A DNA stretch of 64,000 nt from contig VXLY01000004.1 of assembly GCA_009841335.1 (NCBI GenBank), positions 28,837 to 92,836 on the forward strand. Direction: 5' to 3'. Below are positions 10,634-32,341 of the stretch, one piece after another. The DNA is from Rhodothermaceae bacterium (lineage in GTDB: Bacteria > Bacteroidota > Rhodothermia > Rhodothermales > Bin80). How positions within the stretch are numbered: the stretch's first letter is position 1; the number at the start of each line of letters is the position of its first letter. A program made the position numbers and the translations under genes. Below the pieces are notes generated by a model. The model did no database searches, was not told where the DNA came from, and saw nothing but the letters and a program-made list of their open reading frames with translations.

Positions 10634-10636
10634 GGT

Positions 10637-11868: not shown

Positions 11869-11923
11869 TTGTGAAATTGTGGTTTAGGGCCGGATCAATG
11901 CAATTTCCGGCGCTTTGATCCAC

Positions 11924-12976
11924 CTAAACAGAGGATGCCCGTTCACGTTGCAGGTCTCGTTCGACCATTTCTTCAACCAGTTCTTCAAACGAAGTGGTTG
12001 GTATCCAGCCGAGCTCCTTTCGTGCGAGGGAGGCATCTCCCAGCAGATGATCAACCTCGGCTGGCCGGTAGTAGCGGGGATCAACTTCAATCAGTGTCTG
12101 TCCTGTCTTGACACAGCGTCCTTTTTCTGCTCTGCCCGTTCCGGTCCATTCCAAGGGTAATCCGGCTTTTCTGAAAGCCAATGAGCAGAGGTTACGAACT
12201 GAGGTAGCACGCCCGGTCGCCAGTACGTAGTCACGAGCTTCTTCCTGCTGTAGCATGGACCACATGCCCTCCACAAAGTCACGTGCATGCCCCCAATCTC
12301 TTTTAGCATCCAGGTTACCCAGATACAGCCTCTGATCAATTCCGAGCTTTATTCTTGCAGCTGCTCGGGTGATCTTGCGTGTTACAAAGGTTTCTCCACG
12401 CAGTGGACTCTCGTGGTTAAAAAGAATACCGTTACATGCGTACATGCCGTAAGCTTCTCTGTAGTTGACGGTAATCCAGTACGCATAGAGTTTGGCAGCG
12501 CCATAGGGGCTACGCGGGCGAAAAGGGGTTTTTTCGGACTGAGGTGACTCGGGCGCGTTGCCGAAAAGTTCGCTGGTAGAAGCCTGATAAAAGCGGATGC
12601 AATCCTCCATACCAAGAATACGTATCGCCTCCAGTAGTCTAAGTACACCGACCGCGTCGGCATTGGCTGTGTACTCGGGTGTTTCAAAGCTTACCTGCAC
12701 ATGGCTTTGTGCCCCCAAATTGTAGATCTCGTCCGGCTGGACCTCCTGTACAATGCGGATAAGGTTTGTAGAATCCGTGAGATCTCCGTAGTGGAGCCGG
12801 AACCGGGCCTCGCCTACATGAGGATCCGTATACAGATGATCAACGCGCTGGGTGTTAAAGAGACTGGCACGGCGTTTTACGCCGTGCACGGTGTATCCCT
12901 TGCTCAGCAGAAGCTCAGAGAGATATGCGCCGTCCTGGCCGGTCACTCCGGTGATCAGAGCCGTTTTTTCTTTCAT
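11924..12976 (-). CDS. gmd: GDP-mannose 4,6-dehydratase
   Basis: [46 protein letters not shown] is a classic Gmd N-terminus. I placed the start at ATG 12974-12976 ([10 protein letters not shown]), which gives an ATGA overlap with the fcl stop at 12973-12975. Confidence 0.92.
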
Positions 12977-13932
12977 GAGCAATGTCCCTGATACCAGGTA
13001 TAGGTCTTTTGTATACCCATTCGCAACGATGTTGGAGCCTGCCAACCCAACTGTGTAAGGCGAGAAACATCTACAAGCTTACGAGGCGTGCCATCAGGCT
13101 TGGAACGATCGAAGTCAAGTGTACAGCTTGTACCGATGACTTCTTGAAGCAGCACGCACAGCTCCCTGATGCTCAGATCCTTACCACAACCCACGTTCAG
13201 CATCGAGTCGGGGGCTGCGCGGTTAAGCTGATCTTCCGGAGTTTCCAGCACGAACACACAGGCATCGGCCATGTCTTCGCTATACAGAAATTCTCTCCGG
13301 GGTTTGCCGGAGCCCCATACAGTTACACGATCGTCACCCCGTATGCGCGCTTCATGAAACTTGCGCATGAGCGCAGGCAGTACATGGCTCGAAGCGAGGT
13401 CGAAGTTATCTCCTGGACCATAGAGGTTGGTCGCCATTAGCGTAACAAAATCACAGCCATGCTGCCGACGAAGCGCTTGGCATTGAACCACACCAGCAAT
13501 CTTGGCCACGGCATACCATCGGTTTGTTTTTTCGAGGGGGCCCGTGAGCAGTGCAGTTTCTTTCAGAGGTTGCGGAGCATCCCGGGGGTAGATGCATGTA
13601 CTGCCCAGAAAAACCAGACGTTTTACACAGCTGTTTTTCGCGGCTTGTAATACATTGTTCTGGATTAAGAGGTTATCACCCAAGAAATCTGCGGGGTACT
13701 GGTCGTTGGCAAGTATACCTCCTACACGGGCTGCGGCAAGGATGACGTATTCTGGCCGATTTTCAGCAAAAAAATCATTGACCGAGCTTTGAGCACGAAG
13801 ATCCAGTTCACTGCTTGATCGAAGTAGCAGATTTCTGTACCTGTTTGCACGAAGTTTCTTGACGATCGACCGTCCCAACAGTCCGTTATGTCCAGCCACA
13901 TAAATGGAGGCTTCTGGATCAACAAGATGCAT
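12973..13932 (-). CDS. fcl: GDP-L-fucose synthase (GDP-4-keto-6-deoxymannose epimerase/reductase)
   Basis: It has an SDR fold ([14 protein letters not shown]), YAVAKIAG (YxxxK) and a [11 protein letters not shown]-terminal region. I chose the start at ATG 13930-13932 (MHLVD...), just downstream of the upstream stop at 13937-13939. The longer ORF to 13995 would overlap UXS. Confidence 0.88.
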
Positions 13933-13936
13933 ACTG

Positions 13937-14881
13937 TCAGGGCGTCTGTCTAATTTTTTGACGAACATAGGCGAGCGTGCGCTGGAGTCCTTCAATGCGG
14001 TCTACGCGCGGGCGCCAGCCAAGAAGATCCTGTGCCAGAGAGGTGTCGGGTTGCCGATTTTTGGGGTCGTCCTCGGGTAGCTTGTGCTGAATGATTGTAC
14101 TCTTACTATTTGTCAGCGAAATAATTTCTTTTGCAAAATCCATAATGGAAATTTCATCACGGCTACCGATGTTGACAGGACTCGTTACGTTGCTGTTGAG
14201 AAGCCGAACGATTCCCTCGATAGTATCGTCCACATAAGCGAATGATCGCGTTTGGTCTCCTGTTCCGTGGACCGTAACGGGCTCGTCACAAAGCGCCTGA
14301 CGCATAAAGGCGGGGAGCGCCCGCCCGTCATTCAAACGCATGCGAGGGCCATATGTGTTGAAGATGCGCACAATGCGCGTCTGTACGCTGTGGTAGCGAT
14401 GGTAGGCCATTGTAAGTGCCTCGGCAAACCGTTTGGCTTCATCGTAGACTCCGCGCAGTCCAACCGGATTTACGTTGCCCCAATACGTTTCTTTTTGGGG
14501 ATGCTCCAAGGGGTCACCGTATACTTCGCTTGTTGAGGCTAGCAGGAAACAAGCATTCTTAGCTTTGGTCAGTCCGAGTGCGTTATGGGTGCCAAGTGCG
14601 CCCACCTTGAGTGTTTGAATTGGGAGTCGCAGGTAGTCAATTGGGGAGGCCGGGCTGGCAAAGTGGAGGACATAATCCAACGGGCCGTCAATCTCAATAT
14701 ATTCAGTTACGTCGCGTTCAAGGAAAGTAAATCCAGAGTTTTGCTCCAGGTGGGCGATATTGCTGGATGATCCAGTCAGGAAGTTGTCCATGCAGACAAC
14801 CTCGTGTCCATCGTCCAGTAGCCGGTCACACAGATGAGATCCTAGGAAACCAGCGCCACCAGTGATCAAGGTCCGCGGCAT
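13937..14881 (-). CDS. UDP-glucuronate decarboxylase (UDP-xylose synthase)
   Basis: A 314-aa ORF. Motifs are [61 protein letters not shown] and YDEAKR. Confidence 0.88.
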
Positions 14882-14969
14882 CAGCGATGATAGGCCGTCC
14901 TAAGTGATTAAGCGTATGTTCATTTCCGAACAAAGTTACAACCTGAATGCTCACCAATTGACAGTTTAT

Positions 14970-15722
14970 TCAGAGTGGGGCAAGCTTGTGAGGAGAGGTC
15001 TCCCGGATCAGCGCACGTGCCAGTGCACGGGCAGGATCAATGAGGGTTACATCCGGCATGTGCGGTACAGCAAGTGGCAGTTCTGTACATCCCAGGATCA
15101 CAGCTTCTGCACCCAGATCACAGCATGTGTGTACAGCTGAAAGAACCATATCGCGTGCTTGTGGAGTTACAGGGGCCGACTTGGCTTTAATTCCAAATAT
15201 TGGATCAAATATAGCACGGTGTACCACATGTTCCGCGATTTCGTTGCTGGGCATTATTGGGGTAAGGCCAGCACGTTCCACAGCGGATTGGTACAAGCCC
15301 AGGCGATGAACACTCAGTGTTGACAGACATCCAATTTGAGTTATACTCGGCAGTGCTTCCTGTATAAATCGAATGGTTTCGTGGATAAGATGCAGTATGC
15401 GGATGTTCAAGTCCTTTAGTGAGCTTGTAAGTGCGTTGAAAATTTCTGGAGCATGCGCAGAATTGCAAGGAATCCCTGCCACGCGAACCCCTAGTTCGGC
15501 AAGTGTACGGGCCACCGAAGCTATGGCGAATCCGGGATTCTTAGTAATTTCCCCGAACACATATGCACTTCGATCCCCAATCTTGTGACCGTAAGAAAGA
15601 AGCGCCATTGGAAGATGCTCTTGATCTTTTGCAGCGGTGGTTTCCGCAATGACTTTTTCGGCAAGGTCCAGACCGGCTTGTGGTCCCATTCCGCCAATAA
15701 TGCCAATAATTGGAGGTTCCAT
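14970..15722 (-). CDS. Aspartate/glutamate racemase family protein
   Basis: It carries IIGIIGGMGPQAGLDLAEKV and ILGCTELPL motifs. I placed the start at the internal Met (MEPPIIG); the ORF extends to 15755. Confidence 0.8.
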   Translation of the reverse strand: MEPPIIGIIGGMGPQAGLDLAEKVIAETTAAKDQEHLPMALLSYGHKIGDRSAYVFGEITKNPGFAIASVARTLAELGVRVAGIPCNSAHAPEIFNALTSSLKDLNIRILHLIHETIRFIQEALPSITQIGCLSTLSVHRLGLYQSAVERAGLTPIMPSNEIAEHVVHRAIFDPIFGIKAKSAPVTPQARDMVLSAVHTCCDLGAEAVILGCTELPLAVPHMPDVTLIDPARALARALIRETSPHKLAPL

Positions 15723-15812
15723 TGATGTTTGTTGTAGTATAAGGTTATTGACCAAGTTGTAATTTTTATCTTTGCGTACACAAAGTTATGGGCTATCCCC
15801 AAATTTAGCTAT

Positions 15813-18221: not shown

Positions 18222-20330
18222 ATGCAAGTAGGTCTTTTGATTTCGCTGGTGTGCGCTTGTGGGTTCGTCGCACTTTTCTTTGCCTGGACCAAGGCAAGAT
18301 GGATCACAAGGCAATCTCCCGGCACCGAGCAAATGATTGAAATTGCCGGTTACATAGCAAGGGGAGCCCAGGCCTTTCTGAGGCGGGAGTACCGTGTTCT
18401 TTCGATCTTTGTTTTTTCGGTAGCCGTGATTCTCGCGGTGACAGGCCTGATGGGAGGAGCGGATTCAGGTCGCTCCCCACTCATTGCTGTGTCATTCCTG
18501 GTTGGCGCCGTCTGCAGTGGGGCTGCAGGATTTGTAGGTATGCGTGTTGCCACAAAAGCGAACGTTCGGACGACCAATGCAGCACGAACGGGGCTATCCG
18601 AGGCGCTCAGTATTGCGTTTTCCGGTGGTCTGGTCATGGGATTATGCGTGGTTGGCCTAGGTATTCTGGGGCTCGCTGGCCTGTTTTTGGCATACAGCGG
18701 GTTGACTGACTGGACCACGTTCAAAGTTATAGACGTAATTTCCGGGTTTTCTCTGGGAGCTTCTTCTATTGCTCTTTTTGCACGTGTAGGTGGCGGGATA
18801 TACACAAAGGCTGCGGATGTAGGGGCTGATCTGGCCGGCAAGGTATACGAAGGAATCCCCGAAGACGATGCACGTAACCCGGCGACTATTGCCGATAACG
18901 TTGGAGATAATGTTGGAGATGTTGCCGGTATGGGAGCGGACCTCTTCGAAAGTTACGTCGGCTCAATCATCGGTGCGATGGTGCTCGGTACGGGTTTCCT
19001 GACAGTGTTTGAGGGCTCGGGGGCGGCGTTAGGCGATTTGAGTGCAGTGGTCCTTCCTCTGGTGTTAGGGGCTGTGGGGATCCTGGTTTCTGTGTTGGGA
19101 TCCTTCTTCGTTCGTGTGAAGGAGGGCGGAAACCCGCAGAAAGGACTAAATCTTGGTGAATTTGGTGCGAGTGCAGTTATGGCGGTACTCGCATTTTTTG
19201 TGATCACCTGGATGCTGCCTACTGAATGGGTGGCCACTACAAGTATTGTCGGGGAAAAAGTCTATACATCCGTGGGCGTGTTTTGGGCAATGCTTATTGG
19301 ATTGGTATCCGGTGTACTCATTGGTCTGGCAACCGAGTATTTCACATCTACGGCTACATTGCCAACATTCCTTATAGCTAAGCAGAGTGTAACCGGGGCC
19401 GCAACCAATATTATTTCAGGTCTCGGAGCAGGCATGTATTCAACGGGAGTTCCTGCATTGGTGATTGCCCTGGCAATTGTCGGAGCTTTCAGTACCGCCG
19501 GTCTTTACGGAATAGCCATTGCAGCGGTGGGGATGCTATCAGTTACCGGTATTCAGTTGGCAGTGGATGCATATGGTCCAATCAGCGATAATGCGGGTGG
19601 CATCGCAGAAATGGCCCATCTGCCGGCAGAGGTCCGGGAACGAACTGATAAACTGGACGCGGTTGGAAATACGACAGCGGCCATAGGCAAAGGTTTTGCA
19701 ATTGGCTCGGCTGCGCTGACTGCGCTGGCACTGTTTGCCGCGTTCATGCAGCAGGCAGGGCTTGAAACGATCAATGTTGCTCAACCCAATATTCTTGCTG
19801 GTCTTTTGGTTGGGGCCACACTGCCTTACGTGTTCAGTGCGATGGCTATGGGTGCAGTAGGACGTGCATCGGCTGATATGATTACGGAGGTTGGCAGGCA
19901 GTTTAGGGAGATTCCAGGGCTGCGCGAAGGAACAGCCACAGCAGAGTATGCCAAATGTGTGGATATCTCAACTGCAGCTGCTATCCGAGAAATGATTGCT
20001 CCCGGCCTGTTGGCTATTCTAGTGCCGGTGATTGTTGGATTCATTAGTCCAGATATGTTGGGAGGCCTACTTGTTGGCGTAACGGTTTCGGGTGTTTTGT
20101 TTGCCATATTCCAATCGAACGCTGGTGGAGCGTGGGACAATGCGAAGAAGCGCATCGAGGGAGGGATTAGTATTGATGGAGTGGCTTTAGGGAAAGGAAC
20201 AGAAGCACACAAGGCCTCCGTCGTTGGTGATACGGTGGGGGATCCATTCAAGGATACCTCCGGACCGAGCTTGAATATTTTGATTAAGCTGATTGCGGTG
20301 GTTGCACTTGTTATTGCACCGCTTCTTTAA
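18222..20330 (+). CDS. hppA: Membrane-bound ion-translocating pyrophosphatase
   Basis: A 702-aa polytopic ORF. Signature motifs are [37 protein letters not shown] and [22 protein letters not shown]. Confidence 0.95.
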
Positions 20331-21102
20331 GGTCAATCGTTCTCGGGCGCCGCTTTTGCAAGTTAGCCGTGCGTCGCGAAAAAGACGATCATTCCGTTCT
20401 ATCTAATATCGGCAGCTCCAACTCGTGGCCGCTTCGCAGGGTCGCGTTTTTGCGTAACTTATGCCCGCATCACCACTTTAGTGGTAGCGTATTACTTTTA
20501 CAATTACAGGCAGTCTCTTTATGTTTGGGAGAAGTTCAATACCTCCCTCAACCAACAGGAAGTAATCGTCCCCATCTACATAGTGTAGCACGATCGCTGT
20601 GCCAATCTCAATTGGTACGCTAATTGATTAGCCTGTGCATCAACAATTTCAGGTGGTCGCTGTCCCTGAACTAATTGCATTGACGGACTACATGGGCTGA
20701 CCTTAAACGACAATTGCTTATCGGTCCAATCCCGCCCGAACTCGGCACACATATTTCCGTGTCGTCACCATGTAGGCCAAAAAACATTCCTGACAAGGGC
20801 TCCCGCGTAATACGCCGTGCCCCATCACCCCTTTTGCCCATAGCAATCCCTTGTGTTCTTCCTGTTTATGTGCTGTAATCAACGATCCGATCTACTGGCA
20901 CTGTGGGAAAGTCCTTCATGCGTGGAGCGACTACAGCTGGGAAGATTCACCGTTGCTGGGGTCCTTTAGGTGCCTTATCCCCTCACAGGAGCAGCTCTCA
21001 TGCGCGATGGCTGCGTAGCTGTATAGAAGGCGCGTTTCATTCTAAATATTTTGTTGCAATTTACGTATCATACTATGAAACGCAATAAAAATCTATTGTT
21101 TT

Positions 21103-24100
21103 ATGTGGGAAATGACGAGGAGACTGAGCCCGGCTATGGTTTCTGGCCGGTTACGAGAGTTAAGGGGGACCGGAATGGTCCATTCTCTTTACCTGCGACA
21201 GTGTGAGGCTCTCTGCGCGACTCTGGACGAGGCGGGGCGGTCGGACAACGCATTGCCTTTTCCCAAGGCCCTTGCGACGCTCTATCCAGATGCCGCACCT
21301 GAATCCGTTATGGGCGCGTTCCGGATATGGCGTAGCCGCCTCAACCAGCGGCTGAGCGCCGCCAATGCCACCTTCTGGCTCTCGGTCTCGCAAAATCGTC
21401 GGTTACCTCTGGAGGAGCGCCTTTGCTGGTTTGAGGGAGAAGACCTCACGACCGCCAAGTTCGACACCTTCAATAGCGCGGAGGCGCGGCTGGACGGTCA
21501 ATTCGAGAAGTCACGCGGGCGCCCACGCACTGTTACCTACTTTGTAAGCTATGCCCACGCGGACCGTGACTCAGTCGAGTCGCTGCTGAAACGGTTGGAC
21601 CTTCGGCTGTCACAATGCGGGGCATTTAATTTCATGCCTTGGCGAGACGTTGACGCCATGGTCCCCGGCGAAGTCATTTCCAACGAAATCGAAGCAGGGA
21701 TCACCAGCTGCCAGATCGGTCTCCAAATGGTTTCCCATGGATACATGGCCAGTAAGTTCGTCCGCGAGCACGAGCGGCCGCGATTTGTACCTGGCAAGAC
21801 GCTCGCATCGGATTCCAGCCTACGCTTGGGTTTTCCTATTGCAATCGACCAACCGGACTGGGAGAACATTGACTGGGAGGAGTTTCGCCGTGACGAAGGT
21901 GCGCTGTTTTTCCACGATGGCAAGGCCTACCGGGATCTCCGAGAGGGCGACCACGAGCTCCGGCAACATAATCGTGATGCGTTTGCCAAAGCGTGCGTCC
22001 AGAAGATCGTCCAAGCGACCCAGCGTTATCTTGGCGGCTCTGGCGACGACCCGCTTCCGAGAAAAAGGTTGACTGAGGAAGTCATGTGGGAATCCGTGTC
22101 GACCGGCTCTGCTGGTGAGTACGTTCCGGCACGCGGGCACGAGACCCGGATACAACAGGGCTACGGATCCGCATTCGAAGGCGCGTCGCCGGCGACACAA
22201 GGCATCCTTGTTCTCAACCACCTTTTGCACTGGGCCACTCTGCGCCGTTCAATACCACTATTCGCGCTCCTTGGCGAGTACGGCATGGGCAAGACCGTCA
22301 ATTGCAAGCAACTGACCCTCGAATTGCTAGAACAGCGGAAGCTAGCCGGAGTAGATGCCATTGCCCCGCCGATGCCAGTCTACTTGGACATGCGCTACGC
22401 GCGCGGCTTGTTCCGAAGCGAGGCGCTGGAGCAGGGCACGCGCCGCTTTGAGCATGTCGAGATCGACGATCTGGTCAACGCGATTTTTCGCGAAAGCTGG
22501 AAGGCTCGCGAAAAACCCGACGCTGCCGATCTTCGCCGGCTTATCGCTAGTGGTAATGTCTTGATCATCTTCGACGGTTTCGATGAGATCGCTGTACATC
22601 TCCACCCCGCCGAAGCCCAGAGCCTCATTCGGACCATGTGGTCTTTGTTACCGTCCAACGCGTTCAGCACCGATGTCGAACGGCCGCTTACGGGTACGGA
22701 AGCGGTGCAGATGCTTATAAGTTGCAGGACCCACTACTTCCGCGATGTAACGCAGCAGGTGAACCTCTTCTCTGGCTACCAGCGAGAACTTGAGTATTCC
22801 GTCGACCTCTACGATGCGATCACCCTTCTGCCCTTTAACGAAAAACAAGTTGAACGCTTCCTTGCCGCCAAGCTGCGCGACGAGACCAAGGCCCGTCGCG
22901 CGTTCGACACGATCAGAAGCATTCACAACCTGCCCGAACTGGCGCGACGCCCGGTGCTACTTGACCGCATTTGCGGTCAAATCGAACAGATTGAGGCGCT
23001 CGCGGAGACTGGCGAAAGGATCAATGCTGCGCGGCTGTACGATCTGCTTGCCAACGAATGGCTTGCCCGAGATAACGCCAAGCATACCTTGGACATCGAG
23101 ATTAAGAAAGCCCTTATGGCACGCCTCGCCGGCGCAATGTGGCGCAGTGGGGAGCGTTTCTGGCCAGCGGGCGAGATCGAAACGTGGCTTGACGGAGAAC
23201 TGCGTAGTGATGTGCGCCTCAATGAACGTTATGCCGGGCTCTACCGCGGCAAGGCGCGCGAAATACTCTACGAAGATCTGCGCACCTCTGCCTTCGTGGT
23301 TCGTTCCGACAATGAAGGTTTTCGATTTGCCCATACCTCAATTCAGGAGTATTTCCTCGCAAGATATCTTTTCCAGACCTTACGCGACGGAGTGGCGGAC
23401 GACTGGGAGGGTATTGATCCCTCGCCAGAGTGCCTAGATTTCCTAGCCGAGATTGCTTGCGAAAACGCGCGTGAAGTGGAAAAGCAGCGCTTCTTCGATA
23501 GTCTTGGCACATTGCTCCGCCACTCTTATCGCCCGGGCATCTCCGAGGTGGCGTTTCGGGTCGTACTGGATGCGCAGTGCCGGGGCGAAACGGCAGCACC
23601 TCGGGGGCGCTATCGACTGGAAGGTGCTAAACTCGGGGGGTGGAATGTTGCGGGAGGGGACGGTGCCGACAGGATTGAGTTGTCGGGGTCTAATTTTACC
23701 GGTGCTGTACTGAGAAACCTGCAATTCCTCGACGTCATTGCTCGGGGCTGCGTTTTCGATGGCACCACGCTGGAGTTTGTACTCTTCGAGCGTGTTGACC
23801 TTTCGGGAAGTTCATTCGACAGTTCTCGTACGCTGGCCAGTGTCTTCCGCCAGTGCCGGATGAGTGCAGTACAAATTAGTGGCGCGAATTGGCACAATAC
23901 GACGTTTCTGCATTGTAATGATCTAAGTGAATTTGCGAGGCACGATGATCAATCAGGCATACCGCTGATCATCTCCAAAGACATCCTCGGATCACTCCAG
24001 ACACAATGTGATAGATCAAGGCTCCAAGTCCAAACGAGTAACCATTCCTCGGTTGGAGCCTATGCATTCAGCCCTGACGGGACGCGCGGCGTGTTCCATG

Positions 24101-26328
24101 GATATGCCAACACGTTGAGTCTATGGCATGTGGAAACTGGTGAGAAGATGGCAGTACTCCAAGGCCACACGGGGAGAGTTCGGGTTTGCACTTTTAGTCC
24201 CGACGGGGAGCGCATCTTATCGGGATCCGACGACGGAACTTTACGACTATGGGACGGCAAAACCGGCGGGAAGATTGCAGTCCTGCGGGGGCACTCATGT
24301 CCGGTCTGGGCCTGTGCCTTCAGTCCTGACGGTGAACGTGTCGTTTCGGGATCTGACGACGGGACCCTATGCCTATGGGATGGCAAAACAAACAAGGCGA
24401 TTGCGACTCGGCCGGGGCACTCGCTTTCTATCTGGGCCTGCGCCTTCAGTCCTGACGGGGCTTGTGTCGTTTCGGGATCCGACGACGGAAGTCTGCTCCT
24501 ATGGGACGGCAAAACGGGCGAGATACTCGCACTTCTTCAAGGGCACACACAACGCGTGGGGATCTGCGGATTTAGCGCTGACGGGACCCGAGTCGTCTCA
24601 GGATCTGACGATGGTTCGCTGCGCCTATGGAACGGGGAGACCGGCACGGAGATAGCGGTCCTGCAAAGTCACACGGCGAAGGTTACCACACTCGCCTTCA
24701 GCCCCGAGGGAACACGCTTAATCTCTGGATCCGATGATTGGACATTGCGCTTGTGGGACGGAGTGACCGGCGCAGGAATTGCGATTCTCCGGGGTCACAC
24801 GGAGGCCGTTTCAGCCTGCGCATTCAGCCCTGACGGGAGACGTATCCTTTCGGGATCAAATGACGGTACACTACGTCTCTGGGACGCAGATACTGGCGAG
24901 GCTATTTCAACTCTTCGAGGCCATACCGGCCGAATTGTAGCATGCACCTTCAGCGCTGACGGGACACGAGTGGTTTCATGGTCCAGTCGCAGCTCGTTGC
25001 GCCTGTGGGATGGGCACGACGGTGAGGAAATTGCCGTTTTCCAGAATTACGTGGTCCCTGTCTCAGCTTTGGCCTTCAGCCCCGATGGAACACGCATCGT
25101 TTCGGGTTCCGCTGACGGCACGCTTTACCTTTGGGATGTAGAAACCAGCAAGCAGCTCGAGATCCATAAAGGGCACACTAAGGAAGTTAGATCCTGCGCG
25201 TTCAGCCCCGACGGGACGCGTATAGTTTCTGGGTCAGACGACGGCACGCTGCGACTGTGGCAGGGGGAAAGCGGGGAGGAGATTGCCGTTCTCCGAGCGC
25301 ATTCAAGGGGGGTGTTCTACTGCGCCTTCAACCGGGACGGCACGCGTATCGTCTCTGGAGGCCAATACGACGCAGTGCGCCTGTGGAACACGGATCGCGG
25401 CGAGGAGATATTAGGTGCCCATCGTCACCTAAACGGCGATTATAAATGTGCCTTCACCCCAGAAGGGACGCATGCCATCTTTGGAGGCTTTGGCCCGGCT
25501 CGGCTGTACAACATCGAAACAGGCGAAGATGTTGAGATACCTGAGGGCCACATAGGAGGATCGTTCGTCAATGCGCTCAGCCCCGAAGGCAATCGTGTTG
25601 TCTACGGATGTCATGACTCGCTTTTCCTCTGGAACACCAAAACTGACAAGGTACGCGAGGTTTACGTGAATCACGCAAAGGGAGTATCTATTTGCGCGTT
25701 TAGTCCGGACGGGGCATGCATCGTTTTGGGGGCCTACGATGGTACCCTAGGCTTTCTGGAATTCGAAACCGGCATAATAATCCCAGTGCGCCAAGGTCAC
25801 TCAGAACGCGTTAGAACGCTTTCCTTTAGCCCTGACGGGGCACGTGTTCTCTCGGGATCCGACGATGGTACCCTGCGTCATTGGGATATTGAATCTGGCA
25901 AGGAGATCGCGGTTTTTCGGGGTCACACAGGATGTATCTTGACCTGCGCCTTCAGCCCTGACGGAGAACGCATCGTGTCCGCGTCCAACGATGGCACATT
26001 ACGTTTATGGGATGCGGCAACAGCCAAGGCAGTAACGGTGTTCCATCATCTGTCGGAAGGCGGCTATCTCGTTTTTTCCGAACATCACAACCAGGTGCTC
26101 GGTGCCTCTGGGAATGCATGGCGCTATTTTCGTTGGTTCGCACCGGATCGGAATCTATTTCCGATGTTACCGCTGGAGGCGGACCCTCGGATCGGCAAGA
26201 TCCCTAACAACGGCTACTGCCTCAGTGCGGTTAAACCCTCGATGCCTAACCTCCAGTCACAAACGTGGCAGTCTCGTGGATCGAAAGCCTCGCCCGTCGA
26301 CGGACAACAATGGGAACGGAAATCGTAG
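21103..26328 (+). CDS. STAND-class NTPase with the order N-terminal unknown region, TIR, NACHT, pentapeptide repeats, 16 WD40 repeats (bacterial NLR-like, putative anti-phage sensor/effector)
   Basis: A 1741-aa ORF with an ATG start. The TIR-like block begins at aa 143 (TVTYFVSYAHADRD...). The Walker A motif is GEYGMGKT (aa 391-398) and the NACHT-type Walker B is VLIIFDGFDEI (aa 486-496). Seventeen 5-residue repeats span aa 859-943 and sixteen roughly 42-aa WD40 units span aa 986-1656. Confidence 0.9.
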   Translation: MWEMTRRLSPAMVSGRLRELRGTGMVHSLYLRQCEALCATLDEAGRSDNALPFPKALATLYPDAAPESVMGAFRIWRSRLNQRLSAANATFWLSVSQNRRLPLEERLCWFEGEDLTTAKFDTFNSAEARLDGQFEKSRGRPRTVTYFVSYAHADRDSVESLLKRLDLRLSQCGAFNFMPWRDVDAMVPGEVISNEIEAGITSCQIGLQMVSHGYMASKFVREHERPRFVPGKTLASDSSLRLGFPIAIDQPDWENIDWEEFRRDEGALFFHDGKAYRDLREGDHELRQHNRDAFAKACVQKIVQATQRYLGGSGDDPLPRKRLTEEVMWESVSTGSAGEYVPARGHETRIQQGYGSAFEGASPATQGILVLNHLLHWATLRRSIPLFALLGEYGMGKTVNCKQLTLELLEQRKLAGVDAIAPPMPVYLDMRYARGLFRSEALEQGTRRFEHVEIDDLVNAIFRESWKAREKPDAADLRRLIASGNVLIIFDGFDEIAVHLHPAEAQSLIRTMWSLLPSNAFSTDVERPLTGTEAVQMLISCRTHYFRDVTQQVNLFSGYQRELEYSVDLYDAITLLPFNEKQVERFLAAKLRDETKARRAFDTIRSIHNLPELARRPVLLDRICGQIEQIEALAETGERINAARLYDLLANEWLARDNAKHTLDIEIKKALMARLAGAMWRSGERFWPAGEIETWLDGELRSDVRLNERYAGLYRGKAREILYEDLRTSAFVVRSDNEGFRFAHTSIQEYFLARYLFQTLRDGVADDWEGIDPSPECLDFLAEIACENAREVEKQRFFDSLGTLLRHSYRPGISEVAFRVVLDAQCRGETAAPRGRYRLEGAKLGGWNVAGGDGADRIELSGSNFTGAVLRNLQFLDVIARGCVFDGTTLEFVLFERVDLSGSSFDSSRTLASVFRQCRMSAVQISGANWHNTTFLHCNDLSEFARHDDQSGIPLIISKDILGSLQTQCDRSRLQVQTSNHSSVGAYAFSPDGTRGVFHGYANTLSLWHVETGEKMAVLQGHTGRVRVCTFSPDGERILSGSDDGTLRLWDGKTGGKIAVLRGHSCPVWACAFSPDGERVVSGSDDGTLCLWDGKTNKAIATRPGHSLSIWACAFSPDGACVVSGSDDGSLLLWDGKTGEILALLQGHTQRVGICGFSADGTRVVSGSDDGSLRLWNGETGTEIAVLQSHTAKVTTLAFSPEGTRLISGSDDWTLRLWDGVTGAGIAILRGHTEAVSACAFSPDGRRILSGSNDGTLRLWDADTGEAISTLRGHTGRIVACTFSADGTRVVSWSSRSSLRLWDGHDGEEIAVFQNYVVPVSALAFSPDGTRIVSGSADGTLYLWDVETSKQLEIHKGHTKEVRSCAFSPDGTRIVSGSDDGTLRLWQGESGEEIAVLRAHSRGVFYCAFNRDGTRIVSGGQYDAVRLWNTDRGEEILGAHRHLNGDYKCAFTPEGTHAIFGGFGPARLYNIETGEDVEIPEGHIGGSFVNALSPEGNRVVYGCHDSLFLWNTKTDKVREVYVNHAKGVSICAFSPDGACIVLGAYDGTLGFLEFETGIIIPVRQGHSERVRTLSFSPDGARVLSGSDDGTLRHWDIESGKEIAVFRGHTGCILTCAFSPDGERIVSASNDGTLRLWDAATAKAVTVFHHLSEGGYLVFSEHHNQVLGASGNAWRYFRWFAPDRNLFPMLPLEADPRIGKIPNNGYCLSAVKPSMPNLQSQTWQSRGSKASPVDGQQWERKS
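21529..21900 (+). other. TIR-like domain-coding segment of the STAND gene
   Basis: The sequence is TVTYFVSYAHADRDSVESLLKRLDLRL...WRDVDAMVPGEVISNEIEAGITSCQIGLQMVSHGYMASKFVREHERPRF. It matches the bacterial TIR pattern: FxSYxxxD, then D..i.pG..i...I...I, then a SxxY..S.a...E region. The C-terminal boundary is approximate. Confidence 0.7.
22273..22590 (+). other. NACHT P-loop core (Walker A 22273-22296; Walker B 22558-22590)
   Basis: GEYGMGKT is followed about 90 aa later by a hydrophobic strand and DGFDE. The hhhhDGhDE form is the NACHT-clade signature. Confidence 0.8.
23677..23931 (+). repeat. Pentapeptide-repeat (quadrilateral beta-helix) module, 17 pentads
   Basis: ELSGS NFTGA VLRNL QFLDV IARGC VFDGT TLEFV LFERV DLSGS SFDSS RTLAS VFRQC RMSAV QISGA NWHNT TFLHC NDLSE. 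The second position is L, F, I, M or W in 14 of the 17 pentads (the exceptions are A, T and D), giving a strict 5-residue period. Confidence 0.7.
24058..26070 (+). repeat. Array of 16 WD40 repeats (126-nt period), enough for two beta-propellers
   Basis: The unit consensus is CAFSPDGxRxVSGSDDGTLRLWDxxTGxxIAxLxGHxxxVxx. FSPDG codons start at 24193, 24319 and 24445, an exact 126-nt spacing. Units 11-14 are degenerate. Confidence 0.9.
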
Positions 26329-27502
26329 AGTCCGGGCTGGTCTTGGGAAGGTATTGGCAGAAAACCCTACTGTCGATAGGAGGCTTTTGGACGAACAGCG
26401 GAGGCTATTGTAACGCGCTGCTGGTCACTGATGCCACGACATGATTCATCTTGAGTGATCAGTGGTTAGTACCGGCGTTGTTCTGGAGGTGATCAGGGAG
26501 TAGTTAAGGTCATCACTGACTTTCCCGTCCATGAGCACCCCTAAGACCCGTAGCCATCATTTCTCGTCGCCTTGACTGAATGGCTCACCGATCTGCACAC
26601 CTGTCAACAATAGCGTATGTCGATTCTTCAGTCGAAACTTCACGTTCCAATACCTCTGGTCAGCGATCGACGGATGGCACCAGACGTCCTGCACTATCGG
26701 TGGGAGGTTGAAGTGGTCCTCGCGAAAACTTCCGAGAACCGAGAGAGATACTCGATCCCACATACCACACCGCGAGTGAACGAGAAAGCTTACTTTGAAG
26801 CAGATGACTCATTTGAATCTTTTGATTATGGCCCATGGCTGCAATTTGTAGTGATTTCTATCTAGCCGGTCAATGAATCATACTGGAGGCCAGATACTAC
26901 CAAGGCCAATATGATGCGATCAAACCTAGCTCAGAAACTGGTGGATCATCTATACTCAACAAGGAGGTCAAGCCATTATGTCTAGAGTGCTCTTCAGTTG
27001 ATCCATCGTATTGCGGGAAAACTTATGAATTGTATAGGATACTTGAAATCGTTGACATCTGCCTCATTATGTGAAGTAAACCAAAAAGAAGGGCATGGCG
27101 AAGCCAAGGTGCTCAACTGAAAGGGGGATCTCGCTGTAGAGTTCCCGAAGGGGATACCGGGTGATAAGGCGTCTGGCAAGTGGAACAAGTTGGTGTATTG
27201 ACCGAACGATTAACTGTTTTGCCAACCGTATTGAAGCGCGAACCTGAGCCCTTACAGACACAAAGAAATGCGGTATTGCTGCCGTGGCTGCAGGAAGTAC
27301 TTCATAGAATGCTCCAAAAACGGCCTCCAAAAAGAGATTGCTGGCACCGTTCCGCTAAAAGGTATCGTCCAGAGTCTGGATTCGGTGAGGCTGCCAGACG
27401 TATCCAGCCAGAGAATCAAGCCAAGTCGACCGCAGACAGCGCTACCAGAACCTCGAGCGCGTGCTCATTGTAATCATCGCGGCAGGGGAACGGTTTTTTC
27501 GT

Positions 27503-28987
27503 TTACTTCTGTGCCAATTTCTCTATCCGGGATAATTCATCCGTATCGATAGAAAGAACCTCTATCGGGCGCTTGCGGATACCTATACCGTGCTCGATCA
27601 GCAGGTCGACAAGCTTGTCCCCGTCAATGAGTGTAATCGGTGCGGCACCTCGGGCAAATGCCGCTTCGGTAGCTCCTTTAGCAAAGCGGGAAGTCGCTAC
27701 TATGGTCCCTCGGACAGCGTTGAATCGGTACAACGAGCCACGCAGTGCATCCAAATCCTTACGCTGCACAGTGCGCCTGTGTCGCTTCGCTTGGACCACT
27801 TCGCGGACCGATGTGACACCAAGTTCTATCTCAGCAGTCACATCGACACCTCCATCACCGGACTCTCCTACGACCTTCACGTTTAGGTAATTCATCTTCT
27901 CGAGCAGGAGTCCGACAAGTATCTCGAAGGCATTAGGGTTCATCTGCAGGAGGGATTCAAGAAGATCTTCGCGAACTTTTTCCTCAAGTTTCTTGGCGAG
28001 CTTGCGGATTTGCTGTCGTTCGTCAGGCTCAGGCAACGTCCCGACACGCCCAAGGTACGCGATTCCTGCATCGGTGGCCGAATAGTTGGCGCCCTCACGA
28101 TCAATTAGTCCACGATCAAGAAGATTGTTCAGACGACGACGAAGGGCGTCACGGATGGTGGAATCGGTTCTGAGTCCAGAGTATTGCTCAAGGTACTCGG
28201 CCCACGGATCAACAAGGCCCGCAAAGCGAACGGGGCCGCTGTCTGAGATCATCATGAGAAGCTCTGAAAGTCCCTCTTGCTGGTCAAGAAAGATTTCGGT
28301 GCTTCCACCCTGATGCTCGATGAAATCACGACCTTGGTCGGTGAGGCGGAGTTTGTCATCCAAGTCTGCCTCAAGGAGCTCGTATTTCTGGACTAGAAGC
28401 CAGCTCCCATAGATGTACCTAGGATTGACAACTTTATCGCTCTTAGTCCATATGGCCATGGCGAGATCAAGTATATCACCAGAGAGCTTTTCAGGGATCC
28501 AAGTATCGGGATCTGTCCAATCGACAGGATTCTGAGGTGTACCACGAAGCTGCGCCAACGCGCTGCGGAGTCCAGTAACGTGTGTCTTAATGCAGCCGGG
28601 CCAGATTTTCAGCAACTGGCGTACCTCGCCGTACGTAGGAAACAGTGGAATGCGAACTCGCCTAGAGAGGTCAGGCACGCCGCTCTCGTCCTCACGGCGC
28701 CGATCGGGCAATACACTAAGAACCTTGACTTCAGATTCCGGTAATGCAGCATGCAAAGCACGCAATCCGTAGATGCCAGGGCCAAGTCGAATAAATTCAC
28801 TATTGCCGCCGTTACGTGTGATATCGGTAGACAAGGTATTGTTTAGCGTGTTTTCTGGCTTCTTGGCGGACGATGTCACCAGGCCTTTGCTGAGAATCTC
28901 TTCAGTCAGCTTGCGGTAGTGCATGGGACCGAATTCCCTCAGCAGTTTGATGGCTGCTTGGCTTAGAGTGTTCTTGCTCTCGTGCAT
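27503..28987 (-). CDS. Mrr-type (type IV-like) restriction endonuclease with N-terminal HARE-HTH and central winged-helix-like region
   Basis: The N-terminus LSQAAIKLLREFGPMHYRKLTEEILSKGL...FIRLGPGIYGL is HARE-HTH-like. The C-terminus AFEILVGLLLEKMNY...GESGDGGVDVTAEIE...VVQAKRHRR...TIVATSRFAKGA is an Mrr_cat PD-(D/E)xK pattern (D...QxK). I chose ATG 28985-28987 as the start; the ORF opens at TTG 29017. Confidence 0.8.
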   Translation of the reverse strand: MHESKNTLSQAAIKLLREFGPMHYRKLTEEILSKGLVTSSAKKPENTLNNTLSTDITRNGGNSEFIRLGPGIYGLRALHAALPESEVKVLSVLPDRRREDESGVPDLSRRVRIPLFPTYGEVRQLLKIWPGCIKTHVTGLRSALAQLRGTPQNPVDWTDPDTWIPEKLSGDILDLAMAIWTKSDKVVNPRYIYGSWLLVQKYELLEADLDDKLRLTDQGRDFIEHQGGSTEIFLDQQEGLSELLMMISDSGPVRFAGLVDPWAEYLEQYSGLRTDSTIRDALRRRLNNLLDRGLIDREGANYSATDAGIAYLGRVGTLPEPDERQQIRKLAKKLEEKVREDLLESLLQMNPNAFEILVGLLLEKMNYLNVKVVGESGDGGVDVTAEIELGVTSVREVVQAKRHRRTVQRKDLDALRGSLYRFNAVRGTIVATSRFAKGATEAAFARGAAPITLIDGDKLVDLLIEHGIGIRKRPIEVLSIDTDELSRIEKLAQK

Positions 28988-29324
28988 GAGCGTCTCAGTT
29001 ATTGATAGCAGGTTCAAAATAATGACTTATCAGGATCGGAGCAAAATCCCTCAGCTCGACAAAACACTTAACGTAGCTTTGTAGGATGGCCGGCCCTTCT
29101 CTATCCGAGCATTTAGGCAAAAGCGTTGCATACCGGTTTGAATTTACTTAAGTACACTCGAAATCCCCGCTAACAGCTACAGTTCGGCGTATAATCCCTA
29201 GAGTTGATATCATGGCCAGTATAGGTTTAGCAAAGTACCGGAGGATAGGGCCCGTCGAGGAAACCTGTCATGTCATGGTATCTATAAGGTCTAAGTTTTT
29301 TATAAAATCTCTAATTTCGCTCCT

Positions 29325-32012
29325 ATGAAATCAATTTTGCTCATTCTTGCAAGCTTCTTTTCAGTGAGTGTATCCTGGGCGCAATACAACCTTTCTGGAA
29401 CTGTAACGACGCGTGACACCGACGAACTGCTACCCGGAGCCTCCGTGATCATAGAAGGTTCTTCGCGTGGCACGACTACGGATATAGACGGACATTTTTT
29501 ACTCTCCGACCTTTCACCAGGTACGTACACCATTACCGCCTCTTTCGTGGGCTTCGAAGATGAATCACAGGTTGTGACTGTGCGAAGCGCAGATGTTGTG
29601 TTGAACTTTGAAATAGAAGCCACCAGTGTGGCGTTGGAGGGTATGGAAGTATTTGCTTCCAGAGCCTTGGAGCAGAGGACGCCAGTTGCCTTCACAACTC
29701 TGGGAAAGGCGCGATTGCAACGCGATCTCGGTTCGCGTGATGTCCCGCTTGTGCTCAACACCATGCCTTCGGTTTACAGTACAGTACAAGGGGGAGGAGC
29801 GGGAGACGCACGCGTAAATGTACGTGGATTTAATCAGCGTAACATAGCAATTTTAATCAACGGCGTCCCGGTAAATGATATGGAGAATGGTTGGCTTTAC
29901 TGGTCAAATTGGGATGGCCTGGAGGAAGTGACAAATTCTATCCAGCTCCAACGTGGGTTGTCAGTTGTCACAGTGGCAACGCCGTCGATTGGGGGTACAA
30001 TGAATATTCTTACCGATCCGGCACGCAATGCGCGACAAGTACTGCTCAAACAGGAGTTCGGCAACGATGGACTGCGTAAATCCACCCTCATGCTATCCTC
30101 GGGGCTCATTGATGGCAAAGTGGCTGTAACCGTTTCTGGAGTACGCAAGACCGGACAGGGATATGTAGATGGAACTTGGACAGACATGTGGTCCTACTAT
30201 GCTGCGGTTGGTTGGAATGCGAGCAGTGCGCACCGCCTCGACTTTTCGGCGGTCGGCTCCCCACAGCGCCACGGACAAAATTTTTCCCGTCAGAATATCG
30301 CTGCTTACGACCACGAGTATGCCAGTAAAGTATTTGAGCGGGATGGATTGGATGCCGCAACCATCAGCGAGATTCTGCAGGCTTATCCAGAAAGAGGGCG
30401 GCGCTGGAATCAAAATCTCGGTGCAGTTTCGGAGACTTATACAAGGGATCAGCATAATGGCTTTGGACCTGTGCAGCGCAAGAACAGCGGATATATTGAC
30501 GAATTCGAGAATTTCTTTCACAAGCCCATATTGAGCTTAAGTCATTTTGGACAACTGACAGAAAAATCTCTTCTTTCGACCATCGTGTATTATTCGGGAG
30601 GAAAGGGGGGCGGGTCAAGTCGTCATGGTGACTTGGTTGCAGATCAGAGCGGTCCCTCTCCGGTCCCCGATTACGATGCAACCATTGAGGCCAATAGAAA
30701 AAATGGACTGTCTCGCGGTATAATTCGGAACCGCCATAATGTACAATGGACGCTGGGGGCTATTTCAAAGTTGACCCATCAAGTAAACGATCATATTGAA
30801 CTGGAAGCTGGACTCGACTGGCGCAGTGCCGAAATTCAGCATTTCAGTACTGTGAGAGATCTGTTGGGGGGGCAGGGATATTTGCGATTCGACAATGATT
30901 TCTGGGGTTCGGGGGGACGTGCGCTACAGTTAGGGGAGCGGTTTGACTACGATGATATCGTGACTATAAACTGGATCGGTGGATTTTTACAGGGGCGATA
31001 TGAAACAGGACCGTTGAGCAGTTTTGCAGTAGTGGGTTATTCGAGAATCAAGTATACATTTGAAGATTTCTTTACTGATGATGGCCATGGAAGGCCATTT
31101 GCTGCTTCGCCATCACCTATCGGCGGTTATCAAGTCAAGGGAGGGGCAAACTATCGTCTGAACGAGGTCTTATCTGCTTATGCCAGTATCGGCCGCGTTT
31201 CAAAGGTTCCTGTTTTTGATGGTGTCATTGACGCCATCTCCGGCAGTATTAACCCGGATCCCCAGAATGAGTCCTTCATCGGGATCGAAGGCGGTGTGAA
31301 TTTTCGATCTTTAGACAGGAGGGTTACAGCAAAGCTGAATCTCTATCATACAACATGGAATGATCGAACCGTGACACGCAGTCTGTTGGAGCAGAGTGGC
31401 AATGATGCATTAGTCAACATAGGAGGATTGAATGCGCTGCACAGAGGAGTTGAAGGAGAGCTTGCCTGGCAACCGGTAGATTTCGTGCGTTTGGATGGGG
31501 CTTTCTCTGTGGGGGACTGGAAATACACGGATGATGTTTCTGGCACATATACCCCTGATCGTTCCAATCCAGATAGCCGAGAACGGGTGTTTCTCCCCCT
31601 CAGCGGGGTAAAGGTGGGGGATGCCCCGCAGACTCAACTCGCCTATGCCATAACGGCATTTCCCAGGTCGGGGATGCATGTTGTGCTGACTGGACGTTCC
31701 TATGCCAAACATTTTGCGGATTTTGATCCTGCCGGCTATAGCGAACGAAACAGTCCGGTTTGGGAGGCCCCCGGGTACACAGTTTTCGATCTCAAGGCGG
31801 GCTATAATTTTGATAGGGGGCGTTTTGGTGTCCGATTGTTTTTACATGTCTTCAACGTAGCGAACACATTCTATGTGCAGGATGCCGTAAATAATTCCCG
31901 TTTTCACGCTTACACCCTTAACGGAATAAATATGGGAAGGGCAGATGACGCAGAAGTATTTCTTGGTCTACCCAGAACATTCAATCTTGGTACACGTGTG
32001 ATCTTCCGATGA
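29325..32012 (+). CDS. TonB-dependent receptor with N-terminal carboxypeptidase-regulatory-like domain
   Basis: An 895-aa ORF with a signal peptide. It has a CarboxypepD_reg-like segment (LSGTVTTRDTDELLPGASVIIEGSSRGTTTDIDGHFLLSDLSPGTYTI) and a plug segment (VNVRGFNQRNIAILINGVPVND), followed by a long barrel. Confidence 0.9.
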   Translation: MKSILLILASFFSVSVSWAQYNLSGTVTTRDTDELLPGASVIIEGSSRGTTTDIDGHFLLSDLSPGTYTITASFVGFEDESQVVTVRSADVVLNFEIEATSVALEGMEVFASRALEQRTPVAFTTLGKARLQRDLGSRDVPLVLNTMPSVYSTVQGGGAGDARVNVRGFNQRNIAILINGVPVNDMENGWLYWSNWDGLEEVTNSIQLQRGLSVVTVATPSIGGTMNILTDPARNARQVLLKQEFGNDGLRKSTLMLSSGLIDGKVAVTVSGVRKTGQGYVDGTWTDMWSYYAAVGWNASSAHRLDFSAVGSPQRHGQNFSRQNIAAYDHEYASKVFERDGLDAATISEILQAYPERGRRWNQNLGAVSETYTRDQHNGFGPVQRKNSGYIDEFENFFHKPILSLSHFGQLTEKSLLSTIVYYSGGKGGGSSRHGDLVADQSGPSPVPDYDATIEANRKNGLSRGIIRNRHNVQWTLGAISKLTHQVNDHIELEAGLDWRSAEIQHFSTVRDLLGGQGYLRFDNDFWGSGGRALQLGERFDYDDIVTINWIGGFLQGRYETGPLSSFAVVGYSRIKYTFEDFFTDDGHGRPFAASPSPIGGYQVKGGANYRLNEVLSAYASIGRVSKVPVFDGVIDAISGSINPDPQNESFIGIEGGVNFRSLDRRVTAKLNLYHTTWNDRTVTRSLLEQSGNDALVNIGGLNALHRGVEGELAWQPVDFVRLDGAFSVGDWKYTDDVSGTYTPDRSNPDSRERVFLPLSGVKVGDAPQTQLAYAITAFPRSGMHVVLTGRSYAKHFADFDPAGYSERNSPVWEAPGYTVFDLKAGYNFDRGRFGVRLFLHVFNVANTFYVQDAVNNSRFHAYTLNGINMGRADDAEVFLGLPRTFNLGTRVIFR

Positions 32013-32341
32013 AAGAAACTCCCATCGTCCATTTAATATCGGGAATCTCCAATGCATATTTTGTTCCAGGAATGTCTTGACAAATCTACATCATGCACAA
32101 TCCACGGAAGCTAGTAACAGACATTGAGATTGTATATCTAAGTAACCACCTTAATAGTCGTTATATTCAGCATTGGGGCATGCTTTCAGGAACATGATGA
32201 TAAGGCAGCGTATGATTTCCGAGTGATTCATCCAGTGAATCTCGGACAAGGGCCCTGCACATGGAGATTTGAGCTGACCGTTCATGTGATTCGTGAAGTG
32301 GATGTAGCGCTACTGTACACAATTGCAAAAATATCCATTCA

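Follow-up and report, generated by a model that had tools for sequence, protein, structure and literature searches.

A candidate single-gene abortive-infection system of the bNACHT type in a Rhodothermales bacterium

Introduction

Can one bacterial gene hold both the sensor and the killer of an abortive-infection system? This question is raised by a 64,000-nucleotide stretch of contig VXLY01000004.1 from a Rhodothermaceae bacterium (the whole stretch is called the window here). At positions 21103-26328 of its forward strand, one long open reading frame (ORF) encodes an NLR-like protein that combines a TIR domain, a NACHT-type STAND NTPase, pentapeptide repeats and WD40 repeats. A first interpretation made without database searches (the sequence-only reading) took this protein for a self-contained immune sensor with a domain order that it did not know from any characterised system. 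We followed it up with profile, fold and comparative analyses. The protein is almost certainly a TIR-NACHT-pentapeptide-WD40 protein of the bNACHT type. By analogy with characterised systems, we put the probability that it acts as a bNACHT-type STAND NTPase and single-gene abortive-infection system with a TIR NADase at roughly 70%. Its architecture is a common one from a large, already catalogued family and not a new design.

Results

Domain architecture

The ORF proved to be uninterrupted over its 1741 codons, as had been claimed. Overlapping ORFs in other frames reach only 215 residues, so we do not regard it as a chance ORF. Profile, fold and motif evidence gave the domain order NNH6, TIR, NACHT (NBD-HD1-WHD-HD2), pentapeptide beta-helix, WD40 double propeller and disordered tail. 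The features of the protein are, by window position:

21103-26328, forward strand: coding sequence of the 1741-residue NLR-like protein, ATG start, stop codon included, 0 internal stops
21133-21483, forward strand: NNH6 domain, residues 11-127 (Pfam PF22737)
21526-22032, forward strand: TIR domain, residues 142-310, predicted NAD+-consuming effector (TIR_2, AlphaFold2)
21772-21774, forward strand: codon of E224, candidate catalytic glutamate of the TIR domain (alignment to 7qqk_A, family column)
22258-22782, forward strand: NACHT nucleotide-binding domain (NBD), residues 386-560 (Walker A, Walker B, sensor-1-like motif, Pfam NACHT, Foldseek)
22810-23580, forward strand: HD1-WHD-HD2, helical part of NACHT, residues 570-826 (AlphaFold2, invariant columns, PDB profile)
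23320-23361, forward strand: WHD histidine motif FRFAHTSIQEYFLA, residues 740-753 (invariant columns)
23620-23922, forward strand: right-handed pentapeptide beta-helix of about 5 coils, residues 840-940 (Pfam, AlphaFold2, Foldseek)
24058-26136, forward strand: 16 WD40 units and a degenerate 17th closing unit, residues 986-1678, predicted sensor (periodicity, AlphaFold2, Foldseek)
26137-26325, forward strand: C-terminal tail, residues 1679-1741, predicted disordered (AlphaFold2 confidence score pLDDT <50)
26167-26205, forward strand: tail motif LPLEADPRIGKIP, residues 1689-1701 (family conservation)

Pfam was run segment by segment and on a 985-residue query, while the list from the full-protein scan was swamped by WD40 families. 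Two AlphaFold2 models were built, one of residues 1-985 (24-sequence alignment, mean pLDDT 77.6) and one of residues 840-1741 (pLDDT 73.5). All motif positions of the sequence-only reading, including residues K397, E222 and E224, were reproduced by script. In the Pfam scan that it had proposed, TIR_2, Pentapeptide and WD40 exceeded their cut-offs.

The NTPase is of the NACHT type. Its Walker A motif GEYGMGKT (residues 391-398, nt 22273-22296) fits the P-loop pattern GxxxxGK[ST]. Its Walker B motif VLIIFDGFDEI (residues 486-496, nt 22558-22590) contains, as DGFDE at residues 491-495, the D[GAS]hDE signature that has been used to set NACHT apart from other STANDs (Kibby et al., bioRxiv 10.1101/2022.07.19.500537). 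The NBD also has a sensor-1-like motif, ISCRTHYFR. Among 24 family sequences, the NBD columns G391, G394, G396, K397, T398, D491, G492, D494, E495, C541 and R542 are invariant. So are F740, F742, H744, S746, E749 and F751 of the WHD, where the family consensus reads F-R-F-A-H-T-S-x-Q-E-Y/F-F-L-A. NACHT (PF05729) was the top-scoring NTPase family for the protein and appears in the precomputed Pfam matches of most homologs. When a profile of the NACHT-helical part was compared with PDB sequences, the first matches were NLRP9, 7, 2, 3 and 1, and the HD1-WHD-HD2 stretch was paired with NLRP3 and NLRP1. Foldseek searches with the model of residues 1-985 agreed: the top 32 matches were without exception NACHT NLRs (NOD2 at 3.5e-11, then NLRP3, 14, 2, 9 and 7), with E from 1e-11 to 1e-8 over 570-830 columns. 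NLRP1, the plant TIR-NLR RPP1 and SAMD9 were found among the lower matches. An NB-ARC or AP-ATPase identity was rejected, since Pfam gave no NB-ARC match down to E=1 and the fold matches were NACHT NLRs. The stretch of about 360 residues described earlier as a helical region is indeed helical. It is not a separate region, as it corresponds to HD1-WHD-HD2 of the NACHT module.

The TIR identity was likewise upheld. In the domain, TVTYFVSYAHADRD lies at residues 143-156, and SHGYMASKFVREHE occupies residues 211-224 (both checked by script). Over residues 147-223, TIR_2 (PF13676) scored 30.1-32.4 bits against a cut-off of 28, while TIR (PF01582, cut-off 21.3) reached 24.3 bits on a 180-residue segment and 20.3 bits on the 985-residue query. 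PADLOC returned weak SAVED_TIR and ThsB matches to this domain. In the AlphaFold2 model, strands at residues 142-149, 175-179, 205-210 and 242-247 alternate with helices in a flavodoxin-like TIR fold. The sole PDB sequence match of the N-terminal third was a weak one to TIR-SAVED 7qqk (E 0.43). It aligns E224 with the glutamate at chain position 84 of 7qqk_A, which we take to be the catalytic residue of that protein. Glutamate occupies the E224 column in 7 of the 11 TIR-bearing homologs of the family alignment (P0003, P0004, P0005, P0031, P0032, P0033 and P0036), and E222 shows no conservation there. Both residues had been put forward as catalytic candidates. Because only the E224 column is conserved, E224 stands as the candidate and E222 does not. 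We predict from these matches that the TIR domain is an NAD+-consuming effector.

The 142 residues in front of the TIR domain, previously listed as an unassigned cap, were assigned to Pfam PF22737, named "NACHT N-terminal Helical domain 6" (NNH6; 58.6-63.2 bits by query segment, E 3e-17, cut-off 27). AlphaFold2 models four helices and a two-strand hairpin (pLDDT about 90), and the fold looks winged-helix-like. NNH6 is common to the TIR- and PNP-bearing members of the family. It may be a winged-helix-like module with an adaptor or regulatory function, constant across TIR and PNP variants.

The predicted sensor comprises two kinds of repeats. Pentapeptide (PF00805) matched residues 859-935 with 24.1-30.4 bits (cut-off 20.2), accompanied by PF13599, PF13576 and Pentapeptide_4. 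We counted about 17-20 tandem repeats of the A(D/N)LXX type, close to the 17 reported before, in a quadrilateral beta-helix. The model has a 20-residue strand period at pLDDT of about 95, and Foldseek matched it to HetL (3du1) and Rfr23 (2o6w). A stand-alone Qnr identity was discarded: NCBIfam Qnr scores were 18-20 against cut-offs of 240-460, and the beta-helix is a domain within a larger protein. Propeller and Qnr matches, all sub-threshold, were the only ones in the NCBIfam scan.

The second repeat block consists of 16 canonical 42-residue WD units (residues 986-1657), the number counted earlier, plus a degenerate 17th, FSEHHNQVLGASGNAWRYFRW. WD40 (PF00400) scored 438 bits in 13 stretches. 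At the DNA level the block has a period of 126 nt, and its repeats are 61-73% identical, so we rejected the possibility of highly internally conserved WD repeats of the fungal type. The model of residues 840-1741 shows an all-beta WD region up to residue 1669 or so and about 70 disordered residues at the end. With this C-terminal model, Foldseek retrieved tandem double propellers over 620-790 columns, among them the Nostoc repetitive propeller 2ymu (1.8e-55) and Aip1. Apaf-1 was found as 3sfz (E 7.7e-41) and as the active apoptosome 5juy (TM-score 0.49, query-normalised). The 16 units and the degenerate 17th are predicted to form an Apaf-1-like tandem double propeller.

Four homologs (P0004, P0006, P0013 and P0015) have 1-3 WD40 units and a degenerate closing unit only. 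Since 1-3 units are too few for a propeller from one chain, subunits may complete each other's propellers once the protein has oligomerised.

The disordered tail holds a short motif with the family pattern LP[LI]E..G.[IL]P, which is kept across distant members. It was found in P0002, P0100 and P0183, and in a looser form in P0004, P0006, P0008, P0013 and P0015. A local hidden Markov model (HMM) of the tail matched 99 of 229 family proteins. This motif could serve in docking or in autoinhibition.

A widespread family with exchangeable effectors

A search with residues 1-850 returned 18 proteins. In several of these, the precomputed Pfam matches (NNH6, TIR_2, NACHT, Pentapeptide, WD40) are the same as in the window protein; P0003 from Ca. 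Contendobacter is one such case. In others, the common chassis bears a different N-terminus: a PNP_UDP_1 head in P0009-P0015, a two-transmembrane (2-TM) N-terminus in P0002, whose chassis is 66% identical, and a MinD-like head in P0017. Through a profile search we further found TIR versions in Archangium and Nocardia, PNP versions in Burkholderiaceae and more distant Mrr_cat-NACHT-pentapeptide proteins. As an effector, PNP is of the ATP/nucleotide nucleosidase type; a 2-TM segment would target membranes, and Mrr would be a DNA-cleaving domain. The interchange of TIR, PNP, 2-TM and Mrr at one position fits a direct killing effector.

We also ran the NACHT-helical profile exhaustively, with HMMER, against 1.84 billion cluster representatives, of which 29718 matched at E<=1e-3 and 2509 at E<=1e-30. 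Each of the 150 best matches scored >510 bits, and many of them are 1550-1745 residues long. We then sorted 229 collected proteins by locally built HMMs, the last line being a subset that cuts across the classes:

NNH6, TIR, pentapeptide and tail: 45 of 229
NNH6, TIR and pentapeptide: 20 of 229
NNH6, PNP and pentapeptide, with or without tail: 51 of 229
TIR-bearing and >1400 residues: 41 of 229

The subset includes WP_321532730.1 of an uncultured Desulfuromonas, 1572 residues long and annotated as "TIR domain-containing protein", whose N-terminal 930 residues are NNH6-TIR_2-NACHT-pentapeptide by Pfam. Altogether, dozens of 50%-identity clusters, drawn from several phyla, show the order NNH6-TIR-NACHT-pentapeptide-WD40, and the architecture is found in Pseudomonadota, Myxococcota, Desulfobacterota-type taxa, Actinomycetota, Planctomycetota and Rhodothermota. 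The view that the domain order lacks precedent had to be given up. Since each of the modules is on record for bacterial NACHT proteins and databases hold the full architecture many times over, we see no new design here.

In two homologs, P0006 and P0033, a separate small TIR_2 gene lies directly upstream of the NLR gene (7423-7941 of locus L087 and 7525-8004 of locus L088). The fused TIR-like domain of P0006 lacks the glutamate. Taken together, the free TIR upstream and this loss suggest variants made up of two genes, with a free TIR recruited by the fused domain.

A conserved single-gene cassette under purifying selection

One ortholog is a 1770-residue ORF, 73% identical over its full length, in the Rhodothermales metagenome-assembled genome OZ244823.1 (locus L001). 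Against it, the ratio of non-synonymous to synonymous substitution rates (dN/dS, Nei-Gojobori) was 0.28 overall. By segment, the values were:

HD1-WHD-HD2: 0.12, the lowest
NBD: 0.20
TIR: 0.24
NNH6: 0.26
WD40 blades 1-8: 0.27
Pentapeptide helix: 0.33
WD40 blades 9-16: 0.40 (57% amino acid identity)
Tail: 0.56

The whole gene is under purifying selection. The second propeller evolves faster than the first, as expected for a sensor.

Nucleotide homology to L001 passes the ends of the coding sequence and then stops, which marks the shared unit as a single-gene cassette:

20668-26737, no strand assigned: conserved single-gene cassette of about 6 kb (blastn against L001)

Besides the coding sequence, it contains non-coding flanks of about 435 bp upstream and about 410 bp downstream. 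In blastn, identity was 79% over 20998-26737 and 76.5% over 20668-20966, and outside the conserved blocks the two loci are unrelated. The conserved flanks (20668-20966, 20998-21102 and 26329-26737) may hold regulatory elements. L001 has an extra 680 bp or so between the upstream blocks matching 20668-20966 and 20998-21102.

Several searches for further cassette elements were negative. The small flank ORFs at 20369-20623, 26617-26865 and 27067-27552 have no Pfam match, so that no second cassette gene emerged. With the standalone TIRs of the homolog loci as tblastn queries, the fused TIR was the only match in the window. Rfam reported just a tRNA-Gln at 15813 and nothing in the cassette flanks. 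A promoter and terminator scan of 20300-27600 did not rise above shuffled expectation. Neither inverted nor direct terminal repeats could be made out convincingly at the ends of the cassette, where one 9-mer was the only match.

The cassette has been found in mobile surroundings. In L001 it lies between DDE and ISL3 transposases and adjoins a PD-T4-7 homolog. A second ortholog, P0001 (72% identical; 10001-15765 of locus L004), sits inside an integrative conjugative element that also encodes an integrase, VirB4/VirB3/TrbC and methyltransferases. P0001 is called as four consecutive ORFs, and its DNA homology to the window gene is unbroken over 5 kb. This points to frameshift errors in a 6x-coverage assembly as the probable cause of the breaks, and not to a truncation of the gene.

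Genomic neighbourhood

In the window, the cassette is part of a longer insertion. In the nearest genome, the Rhodothermales metagenome-assembled genome OY762508.1 (locus L005), the upstream genes are syntenic and the H+-pyrophosphatase (H+-PPase) is 80% identical. There the E2 acyltransferase ortholog follows the H+-PPase gene after about 90 bp, which makes 20331-32341 an insertion of about 12 kb. The island and its neighbours are:

20331-32341, no strand assigned: variable island of about 12 kb with the NLR gene, an Mrr-like gene and a TonB-dependent receptor gene (comparison with L005)
27503-29017, reverse strand: HARE-HTH and Mrr_cat, type IV restriction-like gene (Pfam, PADLOC)
34049-34963, forward strand: XerC/D-like tyrosine recombinase gene (Phage_integrase and SAM-like N domain), just past the E2 gene

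The island sits between the H+-PPase and E2 acyltransferase genes, and the NLR gene has a GC content of 57% versus about 50% for the DNA on either side. Upstream of the NLR gene are a racemase gene, tRNA-Gln, prs, L25, pth and the H+-PPase gene, and downstream of the Mrr-like gene follow the TonB-dependent receptor and E2 acyltransferase genes. L005 has a 37%-identical counterpart of the XerC/D-like gene at the same position, so that gene is probably resident and not part of the island. About 8 kb downstream of its H+-PPase gene, L005 also encodes a WD40-repeat protein (20292-22067) that is about 40% identical to the WD region of the window protein.

The Mrr-like neighbour matched the PADLOC candidate system PDC-S02 (E 1e-134) and the model mREase_IV (4e-27) of type IV methyl-directed restriction enzymes, and a secondary Pfam match was NA-iREase1, a NACHT-associated inactive REase. 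This neighbour seems to be a defence gene in its own right. We considered it as a functional partner of the NLR gene and rejected this, given that it is convergent, 1.17 kb away, outside the block shared with L001 and absent from the other loci.

Defence genes also surround more distant homologs. Complete ShosA/ShosT pairs lie directly upstream of 34%-identical NLR homologs (8357-9866 in locus L002 and 8258-9839 in locus L003), and this arrangement is syntenic between Flavimaribacter and Pararhizobium. Other homologs adjoin AbiEii, PIN/RHH modules or IS1595. No operon is conserved across the homolog loci examined. Homologs in conserved non-defence operons, which according to the sequence-only reading would have argued against an immune role, were not found.

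Discussion

We regard self-contained defence as the best account of this gene, since it fits the effector swap, the mobile single-gene cassette and the variable neighbourhoods with defence, toxin-antitoxin or mobile-element genes. A mechanism can be sketched if the protein is taken to work like NLRs, Apaf-1, plant TNL resistosomes, Avs and bNACHT proteins. At rest, the protein would be an ADP-bound, autoinhibited monomer with its pentapeptide-WD40 sensor packed on the NACHT module. A phage protein, or a host protein altered by the phage, would bind the propellers, the beta-helix or both. Release of the WHD-histidine lock would then permit ATP binding at K397 and D491-E495 as well as oligomerisation. 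The oligomer would gather the TIR domains into composite active sites around E224, and hydrolysis of NAD+ would arrest or kill the cell before phage progeny are released.

Several results weigh against this account. The Pfam TIR match is confined to positions 2-71 of the 122-position profile, its N-terminal two thirds, and the E224 glutamate is lost in P0006, P0028, P0038 and P0040. Given this loss and the TIR genes upstream of some homologs, the fused TIR could be a scaffold in part of the family. NACHT (PF05729) scored 23.6-25.9 bits over residues 388-523, just below its cut-off of 26.7. This shortfall is compensated because motifs, sequence profile and fold all indicate NACHT. PADLOC, run on the full protein and on residues 1-999, fitted no system model and gave just weak TIR matches and one WD40 match (HEAT-ARM_XIII). 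Some homologs stand amid plain housekeeping genes. In the literature on NNH6, TIR-NACHT and pentapeptide-WD40 proteins, we found no experimental study of the pentapeptide-WD40 clade.

The role of the TIR domain might be a different one. Bacterial TIRs can both signal and kill: ThsB of Thoeris signals, and the TIRs of TIR-SAVED and SPARTA are NADases. The window TIR could accordingly generate a signal such as a cADPR isomer, or be a scaffold that recruits a free TIR or another effector, as the upstream TIR_2 genes of P0006 and P0033 and the glutamate-free fused domain of P0006 would allow. In the window, however, the cassette offers no second gene, the standalone TIRs find nothing but the fused one, and the island encodes no ThsA-like, SLOG, SAVED or Macro receptor. 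E224 is kept, and the chassis swaps TIR with the direct killers PNP, 2-TM and Mrr, so we consider a signalling or scaffolding TIR unlikely. The trigger, too, might be something other than a phage. NACHT-WD40 proteins serve allorecognition in fungi (HET-E/NWD), Kaur et al. tie such STANDs to multicellular prokaryotes, and the family is well represented in myxobacteria and other socially complex bacteria (Enhygromyxa, Archangium, Electronema, Nocardia). Regulated cell death in kin discrimination or under stress, or recognition of self and non-self, would be in keeping with this. On the other side, the cassette is mobile and adjoins restriction-like and other anti-phage genes, and its WD repeats, at 61-73% DNA identity, are unlike the recombining, highly conserved repeats of HET-E/NWD. 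The host, moreover, belongs to the Rhodothermales, presumably a unicellular lineage. A trigger unconnected with phages strikes us as quite improbable.

It has also to be asked whether the gene is immune at all. STAND proteins such as MalT and AfsR regulate transcription, and the winged-helix-like appearance of NNH6, the partial TIR match and the sub-threshold NACHT score could belong to a signalling or scaffolding STAND ATPase with a catalytically dead TIR-like domain, the gene hitch-hiking in a variable region. But the catalytic glutamate and all NTPase motifs are kept under purifying selection, the N-terminal domains are swapped in the manner of effectors, and no target operon is conserved beside the homologs. 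We therefore hold a non-immune role to be very unlikely.

The combination of beta-helix, double propeller, tail motif and constant NNH6 might amount to a sensing mode unseen in characterised bacterial NLRs, although we think this doubtful. In such a mode, the beta-helix could mimic DNA and so lure a DNA-binding enzyme of a phage, the tail could be an intramolecular pseudo-ligand, and propellers could be completed between subunits in members with 1-3 WD units. The large clade would then be a new class of pattern-recognition receptors.

By itself, the gene leaves current concepts unchanged, as every module and the overall logic have already been catalogued. It is an intact and well-delimited example from Rhodothermales, in a phylum with little work on defence systems. 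Its family forms a natural effector-swap series (TIR, PNP, 2-TM, Mrr) on one chassis, which could help to clarify the relation of NACHT-WD40 receptors to Apaf-1, NWD and HET-E. The single-gene cassette, about 6 kb long with flanks of its own, lends itself to cloning and could be an entry point to the ligands of WD40-type bacterial NLRs.

Comparison with known systems

Avs/AVAST proteins (Gao et al. 2020, 2022) resemble the window protein as single-gene STAND sensors with swappable N-terminal effectors (TIR, Mrr, transmembrane), as residents of defence islands and in that Avs pattern-recognise phage proteins. Membership was rejected, as PADLOC gave no Avs1-5 model for the full protein or for residues 1-999. 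The NTPases of Avs1-5 reportedly lie outside the NACHT clade, and their sensors are said to be TPR-like.

Fungal HET-E/HET-D/NWD and animal NWD1/TEP1 share the NACHT NTPase with WD40 recognition repeats. HET-E and NWD proteins differ in having other N-terminal domains (HET and others) and no pentapeptide helix, and the fungal repeats are highly conserved and recombining while those in the window have diverged. In plant TNLs (RPP1, ROQ1), too, a TIR at the N-terminus is joined to a STAND NTPase and to repeats that act as the sensor. Among the fold matches was RPP1 7crc (E 1.4e-7), and the expected logic, in which oligomerisation creates TIR NADase sites, is alike. TNLs, however, use NB-ARC, leucine-rich repeats with C-JID and EDS1 signalling, whereas the window protein has NACHT, a pentapeptide-WD40 sensor and the extra NNH6.

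The resemblance to Apaf-1 and the bacterial Apaf-1-like STANDs (Nature 2026, PMC13581612) lies in the tandem WD40 double propeller C-terminal to a STAND NTPase and is confined to that double propeller. The NTPase in the window is of the NACHT and not the AP-ATPase/NB-ARC type, a fused TIR takes the place of CARD/caspase, and a pentapeptide beta-helix precedes the propellers.

The closest likeness is to the bNACHT proteins, NLR-related and antiphage in function. Those studied include bNACHT01, 11 and 25, of which bNACHT01 belongs to clade 14 with a short C-terminal part (Kibby et al., bioRxiv 10.1101/2022.07.19.500537). In the literature searched, we found no tested bNACHT with a pentapeptide and double-propeller sensor. 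The accessory domains listed for bacterial NACHT proteins include pentapeptide repeats, beta-propellers, TIR, PNPase and NNH (Kibby et al., bioRxiv 10.1101/2022.07.19.500537). With these proteins the window protein shares the central NACHT with its D[GAS]hDE Walker B and WHD, the tripartite layout of effector, NACHT and sensor in a single gene, the NNH-type N-terminal helical domain, the TIR effector and the sensor of pentapeptide repeats and beta-propellers.

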